This document shows, one piece after another, positions 8,037 through 63,116 of a stretch of DNA of 64,000 nt. Below the pieces are notes generated by a model. The model was given only the letters and a program-made list of their open reading frames with translations. It did no database searches and was not told the origin of the DNA. Made by a program: the position numbers and the translations under genes. The stretch covers positions 51,937 to 115,936 of the forward strand of contig OZ006999.1 in assembly GCA_963931285.1 (NCBI GenBank). Direction: 5' to 3'. The stretch comes from an uncultured Atopobiaceae bacterium (GTDB lineage: Bacteria > Actinomycetota > Coriobacteriia > Coriobacteriales > Atopobiaceae). Position 1 is the stretch's first letter. Every line of letters starts with the position of its first letter.

Positions 8037-8062
8037 CAGGCGAGAAGAACCTTCAGCTTGAC

Positions 8063-8096
8063 GGCCGCCTCGGAGCTCCTGGGCTCCGGGGCGGCT
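8063..8096 (+). terminator. GC-rich hairpin after gdhA
   Basis: GGCCGCCTCGGAGC / GCTCCGGGGCGGCT stem. Confidence 0.6.
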
Positions 8097-8118
8097 TGCT
8101 GTGTTCGGGCGGCCTTGG

Positions 8119-8306
8119 GCGTTGTGTACACTCGTCGGCGATGTGTACACTGCCTTTGCGGTTCTTCTCGGTAAAAGCGCAGGTAGACGGCCTGGCGAGA
8201 AGTGCGCACAACGCCGAGAAGTGCGCACAACGCCGAGAAGTGCGCACACCGCCGAGAAGTGCGCACACCGCCGCGGCGTGTACACAACGCCGAGAAGTGC
8301 GCACAC
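8119..8306. repeat. Inverted-repeat element with 19-bp periodic motifs
   Basis: Left: GCG(T/A)TGTGTACACT x2 (8119, 8138); right: six 19-bp units of CGCCGAGAAGTGCGCACA(A/C) type from 8193. Confidence 0.85.
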
Positions 8307-8318
8307 CGCTGCCTGCCT

Positions 8319-8464
8319 GGTGCCGGAATCCGTTCATTTGCGTACTGGCGACACGCATATGACGGAAATCCGGCACCCAGACACGCATATGGCCAAAATC
8401 CGGCACCAAAACACGCATTCGGCGGAAATCCGGCACCGTGCGCAGGTGGCGGAAATCCGGCACC
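8319..8464. repeat. Inverted-repeat element with 30-bp periodic ACACGCAT..GGAAATCCGGCACC motifs
   Basis: One reversed motif (8319-8343), then copies at 8351, 8381, 8411 and a partial fourth; related to 63117-63226. Confidence 0.85.
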
Positions 8465-59200: not shown

Positions 59201-59404
59201 CTTCAGTCCATAAATCTGCTCTTCTGAATGCAAAATCGAGCTTCAGTCCATATGTTTTCGGGCCCGTGAGAAAAATCAAAGAGCTGCTCTCCACGTTTTC
59301 GCAGGTCATAATTTCCGGGCGCGAATTGAAGCGTTCTAATGTGGCAAATTCTTATGGACTGAAGCTCGGTTTTGCATTTGAGACAGGGGAATTATGGACT
59401 GAGG
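59201..59404. repeat. AT-rich MITE-like element with doubled TCAGTCCATA terminal motifs
   Basis: CTTCAGTCCATA at 59201/59241, TATGGACTGA at 59353/59393 (40-bp period), central TTTTCGCAGGTCA. Confidence 0.8.
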
Positions 59405-59438
59405 GACGATTCTGCAGAAACCTGCAGAGAGAAGAACC

Positions 59439-60188
59439 TTACGAAAGCAGTGCCCTTGCGTTTGCCTCAATTTGGTCGGCAACGTCGTCCCTCGTGGTGG
59501 TGCGGGCGGCGGCGATTCCGGCGACGGTGCGAAGAAGGGACGCGATGACGTCGTCGGCGGTCGTGGGGGAGTGCTCGCCCTCGGGGAGGTCGGTCTCCGT
59601 GAGGAGGAGCTCGGCTGGGAGGATGCGAGCGTACTCGCGTCCGCGACGGGTCGCGATGGAGTGCTCGCCGAGGGAGAAGCGGCAGCCCAGGCGGGCGGCG
59701 CGCCAGAGCTCCTCGGAGGACCCGGAGAACCAGTGCAGCACGCAGCGGCAGCTCTCTGCTGCGCCGGTGCGCTCGAGGACGTCGAGGACCGTTCCCGCGC
59801 AGCGGACGGCATGGATGGAGAGGACCTTGGGCGTCGCGGGGTCGCTCGTCTCGGCGCAGGTGGCGCAGATGCGCTCGAAGGCCGCCAGCTGCGCGTCCCA
59901 GGTCGTGGCATGTCGGGGTGCGGCGTCGAGCCCAATCTCGCTGACGAAACGCGTCTCGGGCAGCAGCACGCAGAGCGCGTCGGCGTCGCGCGCGTCCCGC
60001 ACCCGCCAGGGGTGAAGCCCCGCCGCGAGCGCCACGTTCTTCTCGGCCGCAAGGGTCTTCCGCGCGCCTAGGTACTCGTCCGGGGTCACCGTGACGGCGA
60101 GCATGCCCAGCTCCCGCGCCGCGGCGTCGTGCGCGACGGCGGCGGGGTCAGAGAACCAGCCAAGATGAACGTGCGCGTCGAACAACAT
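59439..60188 (-). CDS. TatD-family hydrolase
   Basis: DAHVHL, EIGLD, SIHAV, LHWFSG, ETD. Confidence 0.92.
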   Translation of the reverse strand: MLFDAHVHLGWFSDPAAVAHDAAARELGMLAVTVTPDEYLGARKTLAAEKNVALAAGLHPWRVRDARDADALCVLLPETRFVSEIGLDAAPRHATTWDAQLAAFERICATCAETSDPATPKVLSIHAVRCAGTVLDVLERTGAAESCRCVLHWFSGSSEELWRAARLGCRFSLGEHSIATRRGREYARILPAELLLTETDLPEGEHSPTTADDVIASLLRTVAGIAAARTTTRDDVADQIEANARALLS

Positions 60189-60273
60189 GCTTCCCCTTTC
60201 GTTTCCTGTGATGATACCGCCCGCGTGCTATCCTGTTGAGCTGATATGAACGCGCGCCACGAGAGGACATGCC

Positions 60274-62961
60274 GTGGAAGAGATGCCCAAGAACTACGAT
60301 CCCCAGACCGCCGAGCCCGAGCTCATCGAGCGCTGGATGAGCGCCGGCTGCTACCAGCGCAGCAAGGGCGTGGGCGACTGCACCGTCGTCATCCCGCCGC
60401 CCAACGTCACGGGCATCCTGCACATGGGCCACGCGATGGACGACTCCATCCAGGACACCTACGTCCGCTACAGCCGCATGCGCGGCCGCTCCACGCGATG
60501 GATCCTGGGCACCGACCACGCGGGCATCGCCACGCAGACCAAGGTCGACAAGAAGCTCAAGAGCGAGGGCGTCTCCCGCCTGGAGATCGGGCGCGAGAAG
60601 TTCCTCGATGCCTGCTGGGACTGGACGCGCGAGTACGGCGGCACGATCGTCTCCCAGATCAAGCGCATGGGCTGCTCGATCGACTTCTCCGACGAGAAGT
60701 TCACGATGAGCCCCGAGTTCTCCCGCGCGGTGCGCAAGGTCTTCTGCGACTGGTATCACGACGGCCTGATCTACCGCGGCAAGCGCATCGTCAACTGGTG
60801 CCCGTCCTGCTGCACCGCCATCTCCGACGACGAGGCCGAGTACCAGGACGAGAAGGGCCACCTCTGGTACCTGCGCTACCCGCTCGTGGAGCCCGTCGAC
60901 GGCGTCGAGTACATCACGGTGGCAACCACCCGCCCCGAGACCATGCTCGGCGACACGGGCGTGGCCGTCTCCCCGCAGGACCCGGAGAAGGCCAAGCTCG
61001 TGGGCAAGATGGTGCGCCTGCCCATCGTGGACCGCGAGATCCCGATCTTCTCCGACTGGCACGTCGACGCCGGCTTTGGCACGGGCTTCGTCAAGGTCAC
61101 GCCCGCGCACGACCCCAACGACTACGCCATGGGCCAGGCTCACGACCTGCCGCAGATCAACATCTTCGACGAGCACGCGGTCGTGGTCGACGGCTACGGC
61201 GAGTTCTCCGGCATGAACCGCGACCAGTGCCGCGAGGCCGTCGTCGCGTGGTTCGAGGAGCACGGCCTGCTCGAGAAGGTCGAGGAGCTCGACCACTCCG
61301 TCATGCACTGCTACCGCTGCAACACCTCCCTCGAGCCCTGGCTCTCCGAGCAGTGGTTCGTTGCCGTGGACAAGCTCAAGGAGCGCGCGACGCAGGTCGT
61401 GCGCGACGGCGAGGTCAAGTTCCACCCCGAGCGCTGGACCCAGACCTACCTCACCTGGATGGACAACCTCAAGGACTGGTGCATCTCGCGCCAGCTCTGG
61501 TGGGGCCACCGCATCCCGGTCTTCTACTGCGAGGACTGCGGCTGGGAGGACGCCCTCATGGAGGACGCGGACGTCTGCCCCAAGTGCGGCGGGCACCACG
61601 TCCACCAGGACGAGGACGTGCTCGACACCTGGTTCTCGAGCCAGCTGTGGACCTTCGCCACGCAGGGCTGGCCGGATGACACCTCAGAGCTCGCCGAGCA
61701 CCACCCCACCAAGGTCCTCGTGACCGCGCGCGACATCATCGCCCTCTGGGTGGCGCGCATGATCATGAGCTCGCTCTACTTCGTGGACGAGGTGCCCTTC
61801 CACGACGTCTACATCTACGCAACGATTCTGGCCAAGGACGGCAGCCGCATGTCCAAGTCCAAGGGCAACGGCGTGGACCCGATGGAGCTCATGGAGAAGT
61901 ACGGCGCCGACGCCATGCGCTACAACCTCCTCACGCTCATCACCAACAACCAGGACGTCAAGTTCGACGCCAACATCGACAAGAAGACGCACCAGCTCAT
62001 CGACAGCCCGCGCACCGAGCAGGCGCGCGGCTTCGTGACCAAGATCTGGAACGCGAGCCGCTTCGTCCAGATGAACCTCGAGGGCTACGAGCCGGGCGCC
62101 CCGGCTGCCGTGACGCCCGAGGACGCGTGGATGCTGTCGCGCCTTGCCCGTGCCGTCGCGCACGCCACCGAGCAGTTGGAGACCTACGCCTTCGGTGACT
62201 ACGCGCGTGAGATCCAGAGCTTCTTCTGGGGCGATGTCTGCGACTGGTACATCGAGCTCTGCAAGGGCCGCCTGCTCGACGGCACCCCCGAGGAGCGCCT
62301 CCAGGTCCAGCGCAACCTCGTCTTTGTCCTGGACACCTGCATGCGCCTGCTGCACCCCGTGATGCCGTTCGTGACCGAGAGCGTCTGGGACGCCCTGCCC
62401 GCGAGCGGCCTGGACGACCACTCCGCGGAGTTCCTCATGGTCGCTGCCTGGCCTGAGCCGGAGCGCTACGCCGAGTTCGTCAACGATAAGGCCGAGAAGG
62501 ACTTCGAGCTCGCCAAGCGCGTCATCTCCTGCGTGCGCTCCACGCGCGCCCGCTACCGCCTCTCGCCGCGCGCCGAGCTCGACGTGTGCGTGCGCTGCGG
62601 CGCCGAGGACGCGGCGGTTCTCACCGGCCAGGAGGGCTTCGTGCGCTCCGTCGGCCACGTGGGCGCCTTCGCTGCCTCCGCCGACGCCCAGAAGCCGGAG
62701 GGCTGCGTCTCCATGGCCGACGGCTCGCTCGAGATCTTCGTGCGCGTGGGCGACCTCGTCGACCTCGCGGCCGAGTCCGCGCGCCTGACCAAGGAGCTCG
62801 CCAAGGCCGAGAAGGACCTCGCGGGCGTGGAGCGCACGCTCGCCAACGAGGGCTTCGTCGCCAAGGCCGCGTCCGAGGTCATCGAGAAGAAGCGTGCGCA
62901 GGCCGCCGAGCTCGCGGCCACGATCGAGCAGCTCAAGGCCCAGATCGCGGACTTCGCGTAG
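60274..62961 (+). CDS. valS: Valine--tRNA ligase
   Basis: PPPNVTGILHMGH, GTDHAGIATQ, DWCISRQLWWGHRIP, RMSKSKGN, C-terminal coiled coil. Confidence 0.98.
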   Translation: MEEMPKNYDPQTAEPELIERWMSAGCYQRSKGVGDCTVVIPPPNVTGILHMGHAMDDSIQDTYVRYSRMRGRSTRWILGTDHAGIATQTKVDKKLKSEGVSRLEIGREKFLDACWDWTREYGGTIVSQIKRMGCSIDFSDEKFTMSPEFSRAVRKVFCDWYHDGLIYRGKRIVNWCPSCCTAISDDEAEYQDEKGHLWYLRYPLVEPVDGVEYITVATTRPETMLGDTGVAVSPQDPEKAKLVGKMVRLPIVDREIPIFSDWHVDAGFGTGFVKVTPAHDPNDYAMGQAHDLPQINIFDEHAVVVDGYGEFSGMNRDQCREAVVAWFEEHGLLEKVEELDHSVMHCYRCNTSLEPWLSEQWFVAVDKLKERATQVVRDGEVKFHPERWTQTYLTWMDNLKDWCISRQLWWGHRIPVFYCEDCGWEDALMEDADVCPKCGGHHVHQDEDVLDTWFSSQLWTFATQGWPDDTSELAEHHPTKVLVTARDIIALWVARMIMSSLYFVDEVPFHDVYIYATILAKDGSRMSKSKGNGVDPMELMEKYGADAMRYNLLTLITNNQDVKFDANIDKKTHQLIDSPRTEQARGFVTKIWNASRFVQMNLEGYEPGAPAAVTPEDAWMLSRLARAVAHATEQLETYAFGDYAREIQSFFWGDVCDWYIELCKGRLLDGTPEERLQVQRNLVFVLDTCMRLLHPVMPFVTESVWDALPASGLDDHSAEFLMVAAWPEPERYAEFVNDKAEKDFELAKRVISCVRSTRARYRLSPRAELDVCVRCGAEDAAVLTGQEGFVRSVGHVGAFAASADAQKPEGCVSMADGSLEIFVRVGDLVDLAAESARLTKELAKAEKDLAGVERTLANEGFVAKAASEVIEKKRAQAAELAATIEQLKAQIADFA

Positions 62962-63116
62962 GTCCTCCTGCGCAGGGAGCGCCGCTCGGTTCTTCTCGCC
63001 AGCTCATTGGGCTTCGCCCAGAAGTCGCTGGCCGAGAAGAACCGGGCGGCGCTCGCATGCCGGCACGCGCTCAGACCGGGAGTGGGGCGGGCGCCTCTCT
63101 CACGCGGGAAGCGCCT

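Follow-up and report, generated by a model that had tools for sequence, protein, structure and literature searches.

Sequence-selective DNA uptake is known from two proteobacterial families only, and its origin and purpose are debated. The DNA uptake sequence (DUS) of the Neisseriaceae is a 10-mer (GCCGTCTGAA), which is extended to a 12-mer and recognised by the minor pilin ComP. The uptake signal sequence (USS) of the Pasteurellaceae is a 9-mer (AAGTGCGGT or ACAAGCGGT) with AT-rich flanks, and ComN is its predicted receptor. Another abundant short word is HIP1 (highly iterated palindrome 1, GCGATCGC) of cyanobacteria, an 8-bp palindrome whose role may involve methylation. According to a 2025 survey, the DUS and USS are short asymmetric words that occupy up to ~2% of the chromosome, both inside and between genes. 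The same survey describes inverted pairs in terminator stem-loops, a preference for permissive regions and poorly conserved protein segments, and a frame bias. The paucity of DUS was also used to find mobile elements in the Neisseriaceae, as the title of one report (PMC7371117) indicates. In this study, the non-palindromic 10-mer CGAGAAGRAC was analysed in a 64,000-nt stretch (hereafter the window) from the genome of an uncultured Atopobiaceae bacterium (contig OZ006999.1, positions 51,937 to 115,936). The motif is strongly over-represented at the DNA level, and its 12-nt form might be an uptake-enhancing sequence of the DUS/USS type.

Over-representation, placement and conservation of CGAGAAGRAC

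An exact search of the whole window revealed 54 copies of CGAGAAGRAC between 8041 and 63042, whereas 100 dinucleotide-preserving shuffles gave a mean of 0.44 and a maximum of 3. The strong over-representation reported in the first-pass annotation is thus confirmed. The count made there by eye (~53 copies, 29 forward and 24 reverse) was close to the exact one (29 on the plus strand and 25 on the minus strand), and all 17 of the example coordinates belong to exact copies, those at 8161, 51171 and 53525 being on the minus strand. The two orientations are interleaved along the window. The tail is GAC in 30 copies and AAC in 24, and these two forms are the top two 10-mers of the window by frequency. 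The density is ~1 copy per kb (54 copies in 55 kb), or ~1% of the sequence, in DNA of 66% G+C.

Alignment of 15 nt on each side of the 54 copies showed that the flanks are unrelated outside the core, except for a 5' G[GC]. Position -2 is G in 42 of the 54 copies, and position -1 is G or C. The resulting 12-mer, G[GC]CGAGAAGRAC, accounts for 36 of the 54 copies and is found in all three of the intergenic, sense and antisense groups. Core positions 1-7 and 10 are strict, as the counts of single-base variants there range from 0 to 5 each, whereas the two perfect forms have 30 and 24 copies. Position 8 is G or A; position 9 is A or, less often, G (the variant CGAGAAGGGC, with G at position 9, has 14 occurrences). 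The heptamer CGAGAAG, with 140 occurrences in the window, tops the ranking of ~7000 heptamers by over-representation in a third-order Markov model.

Genes were modelled from third-position G+C, and the model was then corrected with public gene calls (46-64 kb) and with the tRNA-Leu at 54245-54331, the only hit of an Rfam scan. With the corrected model, 18 of the 54 copies are intergenic, as against 14.1% non-coding DNA (P = 2.9e-4), which agrees with the earlier estimate of about a third. The remaining 36 copies are read in four contexts. By synonymous shuffling with the protein fixed, the 20 copies in the sense context xEK[DN] compare with 10.9 expected, the 11 in antisense VLL with 0.55, the 4 in antisense FFS/SFS with 0.56, and the single one in sense ARRT with 0.02. 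The VLL context needs the rare leucine codon CTT (154 of ~1750 leucine codons). The first-pass annotation had already listed EKD/EKN, VLL with CTT, and FFS, to which ARRT is now added; its view that no single peptide explains the copies is borne out by the four contexts and by the antisense excess with the protein fixed.

Under the first, uncorrected gene model with 38 coding copies, shuffling the codon order within genes gave 1.95 copies, and synonymous shuffling gave 11.7. Codon-shuffled controls had been named beforehand as the refuting test, and they yielded far fewer copies than observed. Since codon-order shuffling leaves 1.95 copies against 38, the EK[DN] tripeptides themselves are in excess. 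The motif is a DNA-level signal, and neither a peptide nor a repeat element.

Orthologue comparisons suggest how individual copies arose. The clpX copy at 57322 falls in a segment that is NAEKD in the window species and its nearest relative, where other Atopobiaceae have KVEED, KTEEN, KLEDD or RAEES and Collinsella has PTSVD. At the ValS site (62493), the relatives have AEHD, AERE or AERA against AEKD in the window. These alignments indicate that both copies were created by non-synonymous point changes in variable protein segments. The copies are also maintained, as the motif positions diverge less than their surroundings between related species. For example, only 4 of 80 motif positions differ in L010 (the nearest GTDB genome, 91% ClpX identity), at a background divergence of 12.5%. 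The two human-gut relatives L097 and L094 differ at 0 of 60 and 1 of 60 motif positions, with background divergences of 11.7% and 8.9%, respectively. Five of eight window motif sites are identical in L010, and CGAGAAG is kept in all eight.

Other regions of the genome were sampled without using the motif, by a metagenome scan for an unrelated 21-mer of the window that resembles repetitive extragenic palindromic (REP) elements. The 13 contigs obtained (75.8 kb, 63-70% G+C) contain 49 copies, or 0.65 per kb. Similarity to the window is absent in nine of these contigs, one of which (L096) holds 10 copies in 12.9 kb. Restriction to the window and descent from one repeat family had also been named as refuting outcomes; the density elsewhere and the unrelated flanks show that neither holds. 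Many chicken-gut metagenome runs contain the window sequence, as do independent assemblies from different assemblers, and an assembly artefact is therefore excluded.

The phylogenetic range was surveyed by a ClpX-anchored scan with one genome per GTDB species (80 loci of ~21 kb each). L010, an uncultured Atopobiaceae metagenome-assembled genome (MAG), has 0.52 copies per kb, and the same 10-mer occurs in ~90%-identity relatives from human-gut metagenomes. In the ClpX loci of Olsenella, Parafannyhessea, Parolsenella, an Atopobium-like MAG, ~50 Collinsella species and Eggerthellaceae, the density ranges from 0 to 0.19 copies per kb. As for conservation across the Atopobiaceae, proposed earlier as a check, the picture is mixed: L010 and the human-gut relatives share the 10-mer, and Olsenella and Parolsenella have almost none. 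The heptamer CGAGAAG ranks first in the Atopobium-like MAG (L012, 50.6% G+C), third in L010 and 16th in Parafannyhessea umbonata (L015), and 76-90% of its sites in these three have C at position 10. The favoured tails in L012 and L015 are TTC and CGC. These variants may be related dialects, or may reflect codon-pair usage; many of the L012 and L015 sites are conserved Glu-Lys codons, and 11 of 12 CGAGAAG heptamers in Collinsella are in that frame.

The motif is scarce in a mobile element at the left end of the window. No copy occurs in 1-8040 (P ~4e-4 at the density of the rest of the window), and 740-6335 encodes a VapE/primase protein, an HTH_17 protein and a tyrosine integrase. A public contig that shares the primase (L103) contains the whole element, from the integrase to a terminase-like gene (~13.3 kb), adjoining gdh. 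This single element holds 1 copy against ~13 expected at host density, and its host flanks hold 4.

Relationship to uptake sequences and alternative explanations

The motif resembles the DUS in its non-palindromic 10-mer core with two semi-conserved 5' bases that complete a 12-mer, and in its ~1 copy per kb in both orientations, genic and intergenic, with inverted pairs in post-gene stem-loops. It also shares with the DUS the permissive positions, the scarcity in integrated mobile elements and the occurrence in close relatives. As in the USS, the coding copies impose particular tripeptides, show a frame bias and originate by point mutation in poorly conserved segments. However, the sequence is unrelated to GCCGTCTGAA and AAGTGCGGT, and the host, a Gram-positive anaerobe of the actinobacteria, has no outer membrane and belongs to a phylum other than that of the Pasteurellaceae. 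The phylogenetic range is narrower than that of the DUS, a minority of the intergenic copies is paired, and an accessory segment is denser than the core; the phased AT-rich flanks of the USS are also missing. The DUS is received by ComP and the type IV pilus, whereas the present motif is known from its sequence signature, and an uptake role is assigned by analogy. It does not belong to the Neisseriaceae DUS or the Pasteurellaceae USS proper, and the nearest relatives of its host are in the Atopobiaceae.

All the sequence-level hallmarks of DUS and USS that were open to test were found, including the density, strand symmetry, intergenic excess and post-gene hairpins, as well as the point-mutation origin, conservation, mobile-element scarcity, and presence in other regions and close relatives. 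The DUS-like character proposed in the first-pass annotation holds to this extent, and uptake itself is argued by analogy. We give a probability of about one half to the explanation that G[GC]CGAGAAGRAC is a DUS/USS-type uptake-enhancing sequence, spread by molecular drive in a gut Atopobiaceae lineage. By the same analogy, natural competence, an uptake bias and a receptor might be expected in this lineage. Competent cells would bind or take up motif-bearing double-stranded DNA better, via a sequence-specific surface DNA receptor, and homologous recombination would then swap the resident alleles for the imported ones. Point mutations that make or keep a copy would hence be over-transmitted in the population. 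Copies would build up where selection tolerates them, such as intergenic hairpins past genes, variable protein segments, and frames giving EKD/EKN, VLL and FFS; DNA arriving by other routes, for example an integrase-borne phage-like element, would be without the motif.

At slightly less than even odds, the motif would be the first of its class to come from outside the Proteobacteria, and would imply naturally transformable gut Atopobiaceae that select their own DNA by a new receptor, which would have evolved independently of ComP and ComN on a Gram-positive envelope. When the full-text literature was searched for the 10-mers, degenerate forms and the heptamer, primers and unrelated uses were the only matches, and the motif is unreported as far as these searches can tell. 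The first-pass annotation knew of no such sequence in Actinobacteria; likewise, the literature searches turned up no uptake-type sequence in Actinomycetota, and no reports of uptake sequences or comEC relevant to Actinobacteria or Coriobacteriia. If the uptake explanation is true, uptake specificity evolved more than once, natural competence is predicted in a group for which no competence reports were found, and a new kind of DNA receptor is indicated. The motif density would also be a marker that separates native from mobile DNA and flags within-lineage gene flow in the gut. The uptake claim is testable, since the motif is defined to the base, related chicken-caecum organisms are cultured, and the source assemblies are long-read.

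Several observations weigh against the uptake explanation. The class assignment is made from the motif's signature, whereas preferential uptake is the defining property of DUS and USS, and all the features found are equally expected from a non-uptake drive or a selected binding site. To our knowledge, no Gram-positive or actinobacterial species has so far been shown to have sequence-specific natural competence, and the literature searches gave no counter-example of sequence-specific uptake in Gram-positives. A crude ComEC screen (HxHxDH plus transmembrane segments) gave nothing convincing in ~68 kb of this genome and the fetched loci. Relatives at ~80% ClpX identity are without the 10-mer, and the range is much narrower than in the Neisseriaceae. 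The spacing of the copies is Poisson-like (gap coefficient of variation 0.99, against 0.97 for random placement), and the even spacing reported for the USS was not seen. The inverted pairs take in only 2 to 4 of the 18 intergenic copies, and no obvious T-tract follows the three predicted motif hairpins. Moreover, a core-genome bias has been reported for the DUS, whereas the 30-kb segment at 24.3-54.2 kb runs in the opposite direction, with 1.17 copies per kb against 0.76 in the part shared with L010. This segment ends at the tRNA-Leu and is missing from L010, where the histidine kinase gene is followed directly by tRNA-Leu and tig. Relatives at ~91% identity share part of it, and therefore the segment is variable but native to the clade.

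The main alternative, which is less probable than uptake and had been named in the first-pass annotation, is a HIP1-like abundant site unrelated to uptake that a sequence-specific protein of the host would recognise. A non-palindromic (Type IIG/III-like) methyltransferase together with short-patch repair, or an abundant chromosome-associated DNA-binding protein, might act chromosome-wide through biased repair or weak selection for binding. The abundance, the strand symmetry, the independence of reading frame, the origin by point mutation, the conservation and the restriction to one lineage are all equally predicted by such a process, and few copies in a recently integrated element are expected of any residence-time process. 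HIP1 itself is a precedent, being very abundant in coding and non-coding DNA without a proven uptake role, and spread by substitution as this motif is. However, the present motif is asymmetric, unlike HIP1 and the sites of ordinary Type II methyltransferases, which are palindromic, and we know of no asymmetric 10-12-mer brought to ~100-fold excess by repair or binding. The one-off variants at core positions show no skew to deamination products, with counts too small to decide, and no cognate methyltransferase or candidate binder was identified here. If the motif were driven by methylation, repair or binding, it would stand beside HIP1 as a rare asymmetric case, and likewise be unexplained biology.

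It is highly improbable that the motif is a replication-oriented polar signal, similar to Chi, the FtsK-orienting polar sequences (KOPS) or the architecture-imparting sequences (AIMS), which is read by a translocating enzyme (RecBCD/AddAB/AdnAB or FtsK). The motif is, like Chi and KOPS, a short, asymmetric and over-represented word, and it is kept between related species. Known polar signals, however, are strongly polarised along the leading strand and only few-fold enriched; here the enrichment is ~100-fold, and the 29 plus-strand and 25 minus-strand copies are interleaved while the cumulative GC skew climbs across most of the window (the replication direction is taken from this skew only). 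Still less credible is one dispersed repeat family, such as REP elements or miniature inverted-repeat transposable elements (MITEs), or a local duplication. REP-like palindromes and tandem arrays do occur in the window, and one array contains the core heptamer six times, but there is no conserved unit past 12 nt around the 54 copies, two thirds of the copies lie within unrelated genes, and the orthologues show single substitutions rather than insertion. The repeat family is thus refuted by flank alignment, genic placement and orthologue comparison. The poorest candidate is a by-product of protein composition and codon usage (Glu-Lys-Asp/Asn in the preferred codons GAG-AAG-GAC/AAC after a C-ending codon), which could draw on the 20 of 36 coding copies in the EK[DN] frame, the 10.9 copies left by synonymous shuffling and the Glu-Lys frame of the Collinsella heptamers, but is refuted as a sufficient explanation by the shuffles (codon-order 1.95 against 38; 15 antisense copies against ~1.1 by synonymous shuffling, with the rare CTT needed), by the 18 intergenic copies, and by the EKD tripeptides being derived states that are absent from the relatives' orthologues.

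Motif copies, hairpins and neighbouring elements

The motif copies and associated features are listed in Table 1. Two 22-nt inverted repeats carry the motif in both arms, and in a third predicted hairpin (14277-14312), which lies between convergent genes, one arm is a full copy and the other a partial copy. Over the whole window, heptamer pairs (inverted or direct) within 80 nt showed no significant excess.

Table 1. Exact copies of CGAGAAGRAC and associated features, in window coordinates
Feature	Position	Strand	Location and reading
Motif copy GGCGAGAAGAAC	8041..8050	+	intergenic, 5 nt past gdh stop
Motif copy ACCGAGAAGAAC	8161..8170	-	intergenic; pairs with 8041 copy around two internal hairpins
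Motif copy	8915..8924	+	carA, sense, NEKD
Motif copy	13775..13784	+	PHP-domain gene, sense, GEKD; same in L010
Motif copy	14281..14290	+	intergenic, convergent genes; hairpin with partial inverted copy CCCTTCTCGCCC at ~14300-14312
Motif copy	15352..15361	+	intergenic
Motif copy	18288..18297	-	intergenic, inverted pair, left arm
Motif copy	18315..18324	+	intergenic, inverted pair, right arm
Motif copy	19959..19968	+	OmpR-type response regulator gene, sense, GEKN
Motif copy	23883..23892	-	histidine kinase gene, antisense, VLLG
Motif copy	24059..24068	+	histidine kinase gene, sense, GEKD; first of two adjacent 12-mers
Motif copy	24071..24080	+	histidine kinase gene, sense, GEKN; second of two adjacent 12-mers
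Motif copy	24382..24391	-	intergenic
Motif copy	24530..24539	+	intergenic, beside REP-like element
Motif copy	25364..25373	+	open reading frame (ORF) 25302-25856, antisense, VLLG
Motif copy	26677..26686	-	HTH gene, sense, SEKN
Motif copy	27830..27839	-	GNAT gene, sense, GEKD
Motif copy	28467..28476	+	intergenic
Motif copy	29369..29378	-	sense, frame +1, ARRT
Motif copy	30114..30123	+	antisense, VLLA
Motif copy	30336..30345	+	antisense, VLLV
Motif copy	30895..30904	-	sense, GEKD
Motif copy	32652..32661	-	intergenic
Motif copy	33024..33033	+	FtsX-type permease gene, sense, GEKD
Motif copy	34039..34048	-	antisense, VLLA
Motif copy	35197..35206	-	antisense, VLLA
Motif copy	35781..35790	+	antisense, PFFS
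Motif copy	36336..36345	-	sense, SEKD
Motif copy	38448..38457	+	sense, AEKN
Motif copy	40190..40199	-	intergenic
Motif copy	40371..40380	-	intergenic
Motif copy	41885..41894	-	ABC exporter gene, antisense, VLLV
Motif copy	42349..42358	-	sense, AEKN
Motif copy	42715..42724	+	antisense, RFFS
Motif copy	43241..43250	+	antisense, SFFS
Motif copy	43664..43673	-	intergenic
Motif copy	44518..44527	+	MFS gene, sense, GEKD
Motif copy	47378..47387	-	antisense, VSFS
Motif copy	47660..47669	+	sense, GEKD
Motif copy	47853..47862	-	antisense, VLLD
Motif copy	48951..48960	+	sense, LEKN
Motif copy	51171..51180	-	antisense, VLLA
Motif copy	51309..51318	-	antisense, VLLA
Motif copy	52964..52973	-	intergenic per public gene calls
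Motif copy	53026..53035	+	intergenic, directly 5' of ORF 53048 start
Motif copy	53525..53534	-	antisense, VLLA
Motif copy	54080..54089	+	intergenic, 5' of tRNA-Leu
Motif copy	55710..55719	+	trigger factor C-terminal tail, sense, AEKN
Motif copy	57322..57331	+	clpX, sense, AEKD; relatives EED/EEN/EDD there
Motif copy	60036..60045	-	tatD-like gene, sense, AEKN
Motif copy	62493..62502	+	valS, sense, AEKD; relatives AEHD/AERA there
Motif copy	62808..62817	+	valS, sense, AEKD
Motif copy	62989..62998	-	intergenic past valS, inverted pair, left arm
Motif copy	63033..63042	+	intergenic past valS, inverted pair, right arm
22-nt inverted repeat, motif in both arms	62977..63054		16-93 nt past valS stop; predicted hairpin -69.8 kcal/mol, z = -8.4 vs shuffles
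22-nt inverted repeat, motif in both arms	18278..18334		between two minus-strand transporter genes; predicted hairpin -43.1 kcal/mol, z = -4.4
Tandem array, 6 x 19 bp (CGAGAAGTGCGCACAACGC)	8196..8309	+	core heptamer at start of each unit
Motif-free portion of integrated ~13 kb element	1..6500		integrase, HTH_17, VapE/primase

The two adjacent 12-mers in the histidine kinase gene (24057-24084, GGCGAGAAGGAC GGCGAGAAGAAC) are read GEKDGEKN; in the L010 orthologue of this site, the first tail is GGC. The 625-nt gdh-carA spacer contains two adjacent tandem arrays, the 19-bp one (8196-8309) and another at 8350-8464 with ~4 units of 30 bp (GACACGCATATGGCGGAAATCCGGCACCAA), and a copy of the 30-bp unit is also found at 63117-63205.

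The element beside gdh has the look of a phage satellite or a small prophage, with a lower G+C of 59-65%. In L103 (~3400-16700), it also includes a PriCT/Toprim/VapE primase, an HTH_17 excisionase-like protein and many small ORFs. Among the IMG/VR phage contigs, the inverted-pair pattern was found in 7, each with an isolated pair and none motif-dense, and the host-specific REP-like 21-mer had no match in IMG/VR contigs. One IMG/VR contig (L110, 49% G+C) has 14 CGAGAAG in 13.9 kb, ~8 times as many as its composition predicts, and C is not preferred at position 10.

The variable 30-kb segment, in which the motif is denser than anywhere else in the window, encodes MazF, Fic, several GNATs, an ECF sigma factor with a DUF4179 anti-sigma factor, and ABC exporters. 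At 46287-52082, two fused ABC exporter genes are followed by a LytTR response regulator and a HATPase_c_5 histidine kinase, with REP-like palindromes between them. No peptide gene was identified in this cassette, and the layout resembles peptide quorum-sensing cassettes (Agr/Com/Blp type) by gene order alone.

The REP-like palindromic family (ATGATTCAA(AA/TT)GGGGACAGACCCC..TTGAATCAT) has arms of 35-36 nt with 100% complementarity and is located at gene ends (19741-19775, 24502-24522, 25285-25305, 48103-48179 and 50026-50103). Contigs of related organisms from human-gut metagenomes share its 21-mer, and an IS200-like Y1 transposase gene in L103 (17766-18521) might be a candidate REP-associated tyrosine transposase (RAYT). 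A second palindromic family (GTGACAATTAGGACAGGTTAAATTGTCAC) forms two perfect inverted pairs at gene ends (6427-6503 and 20535-20619), and a palindrome with 48-nt arms lies at the gene end past clpX (57808-57921).

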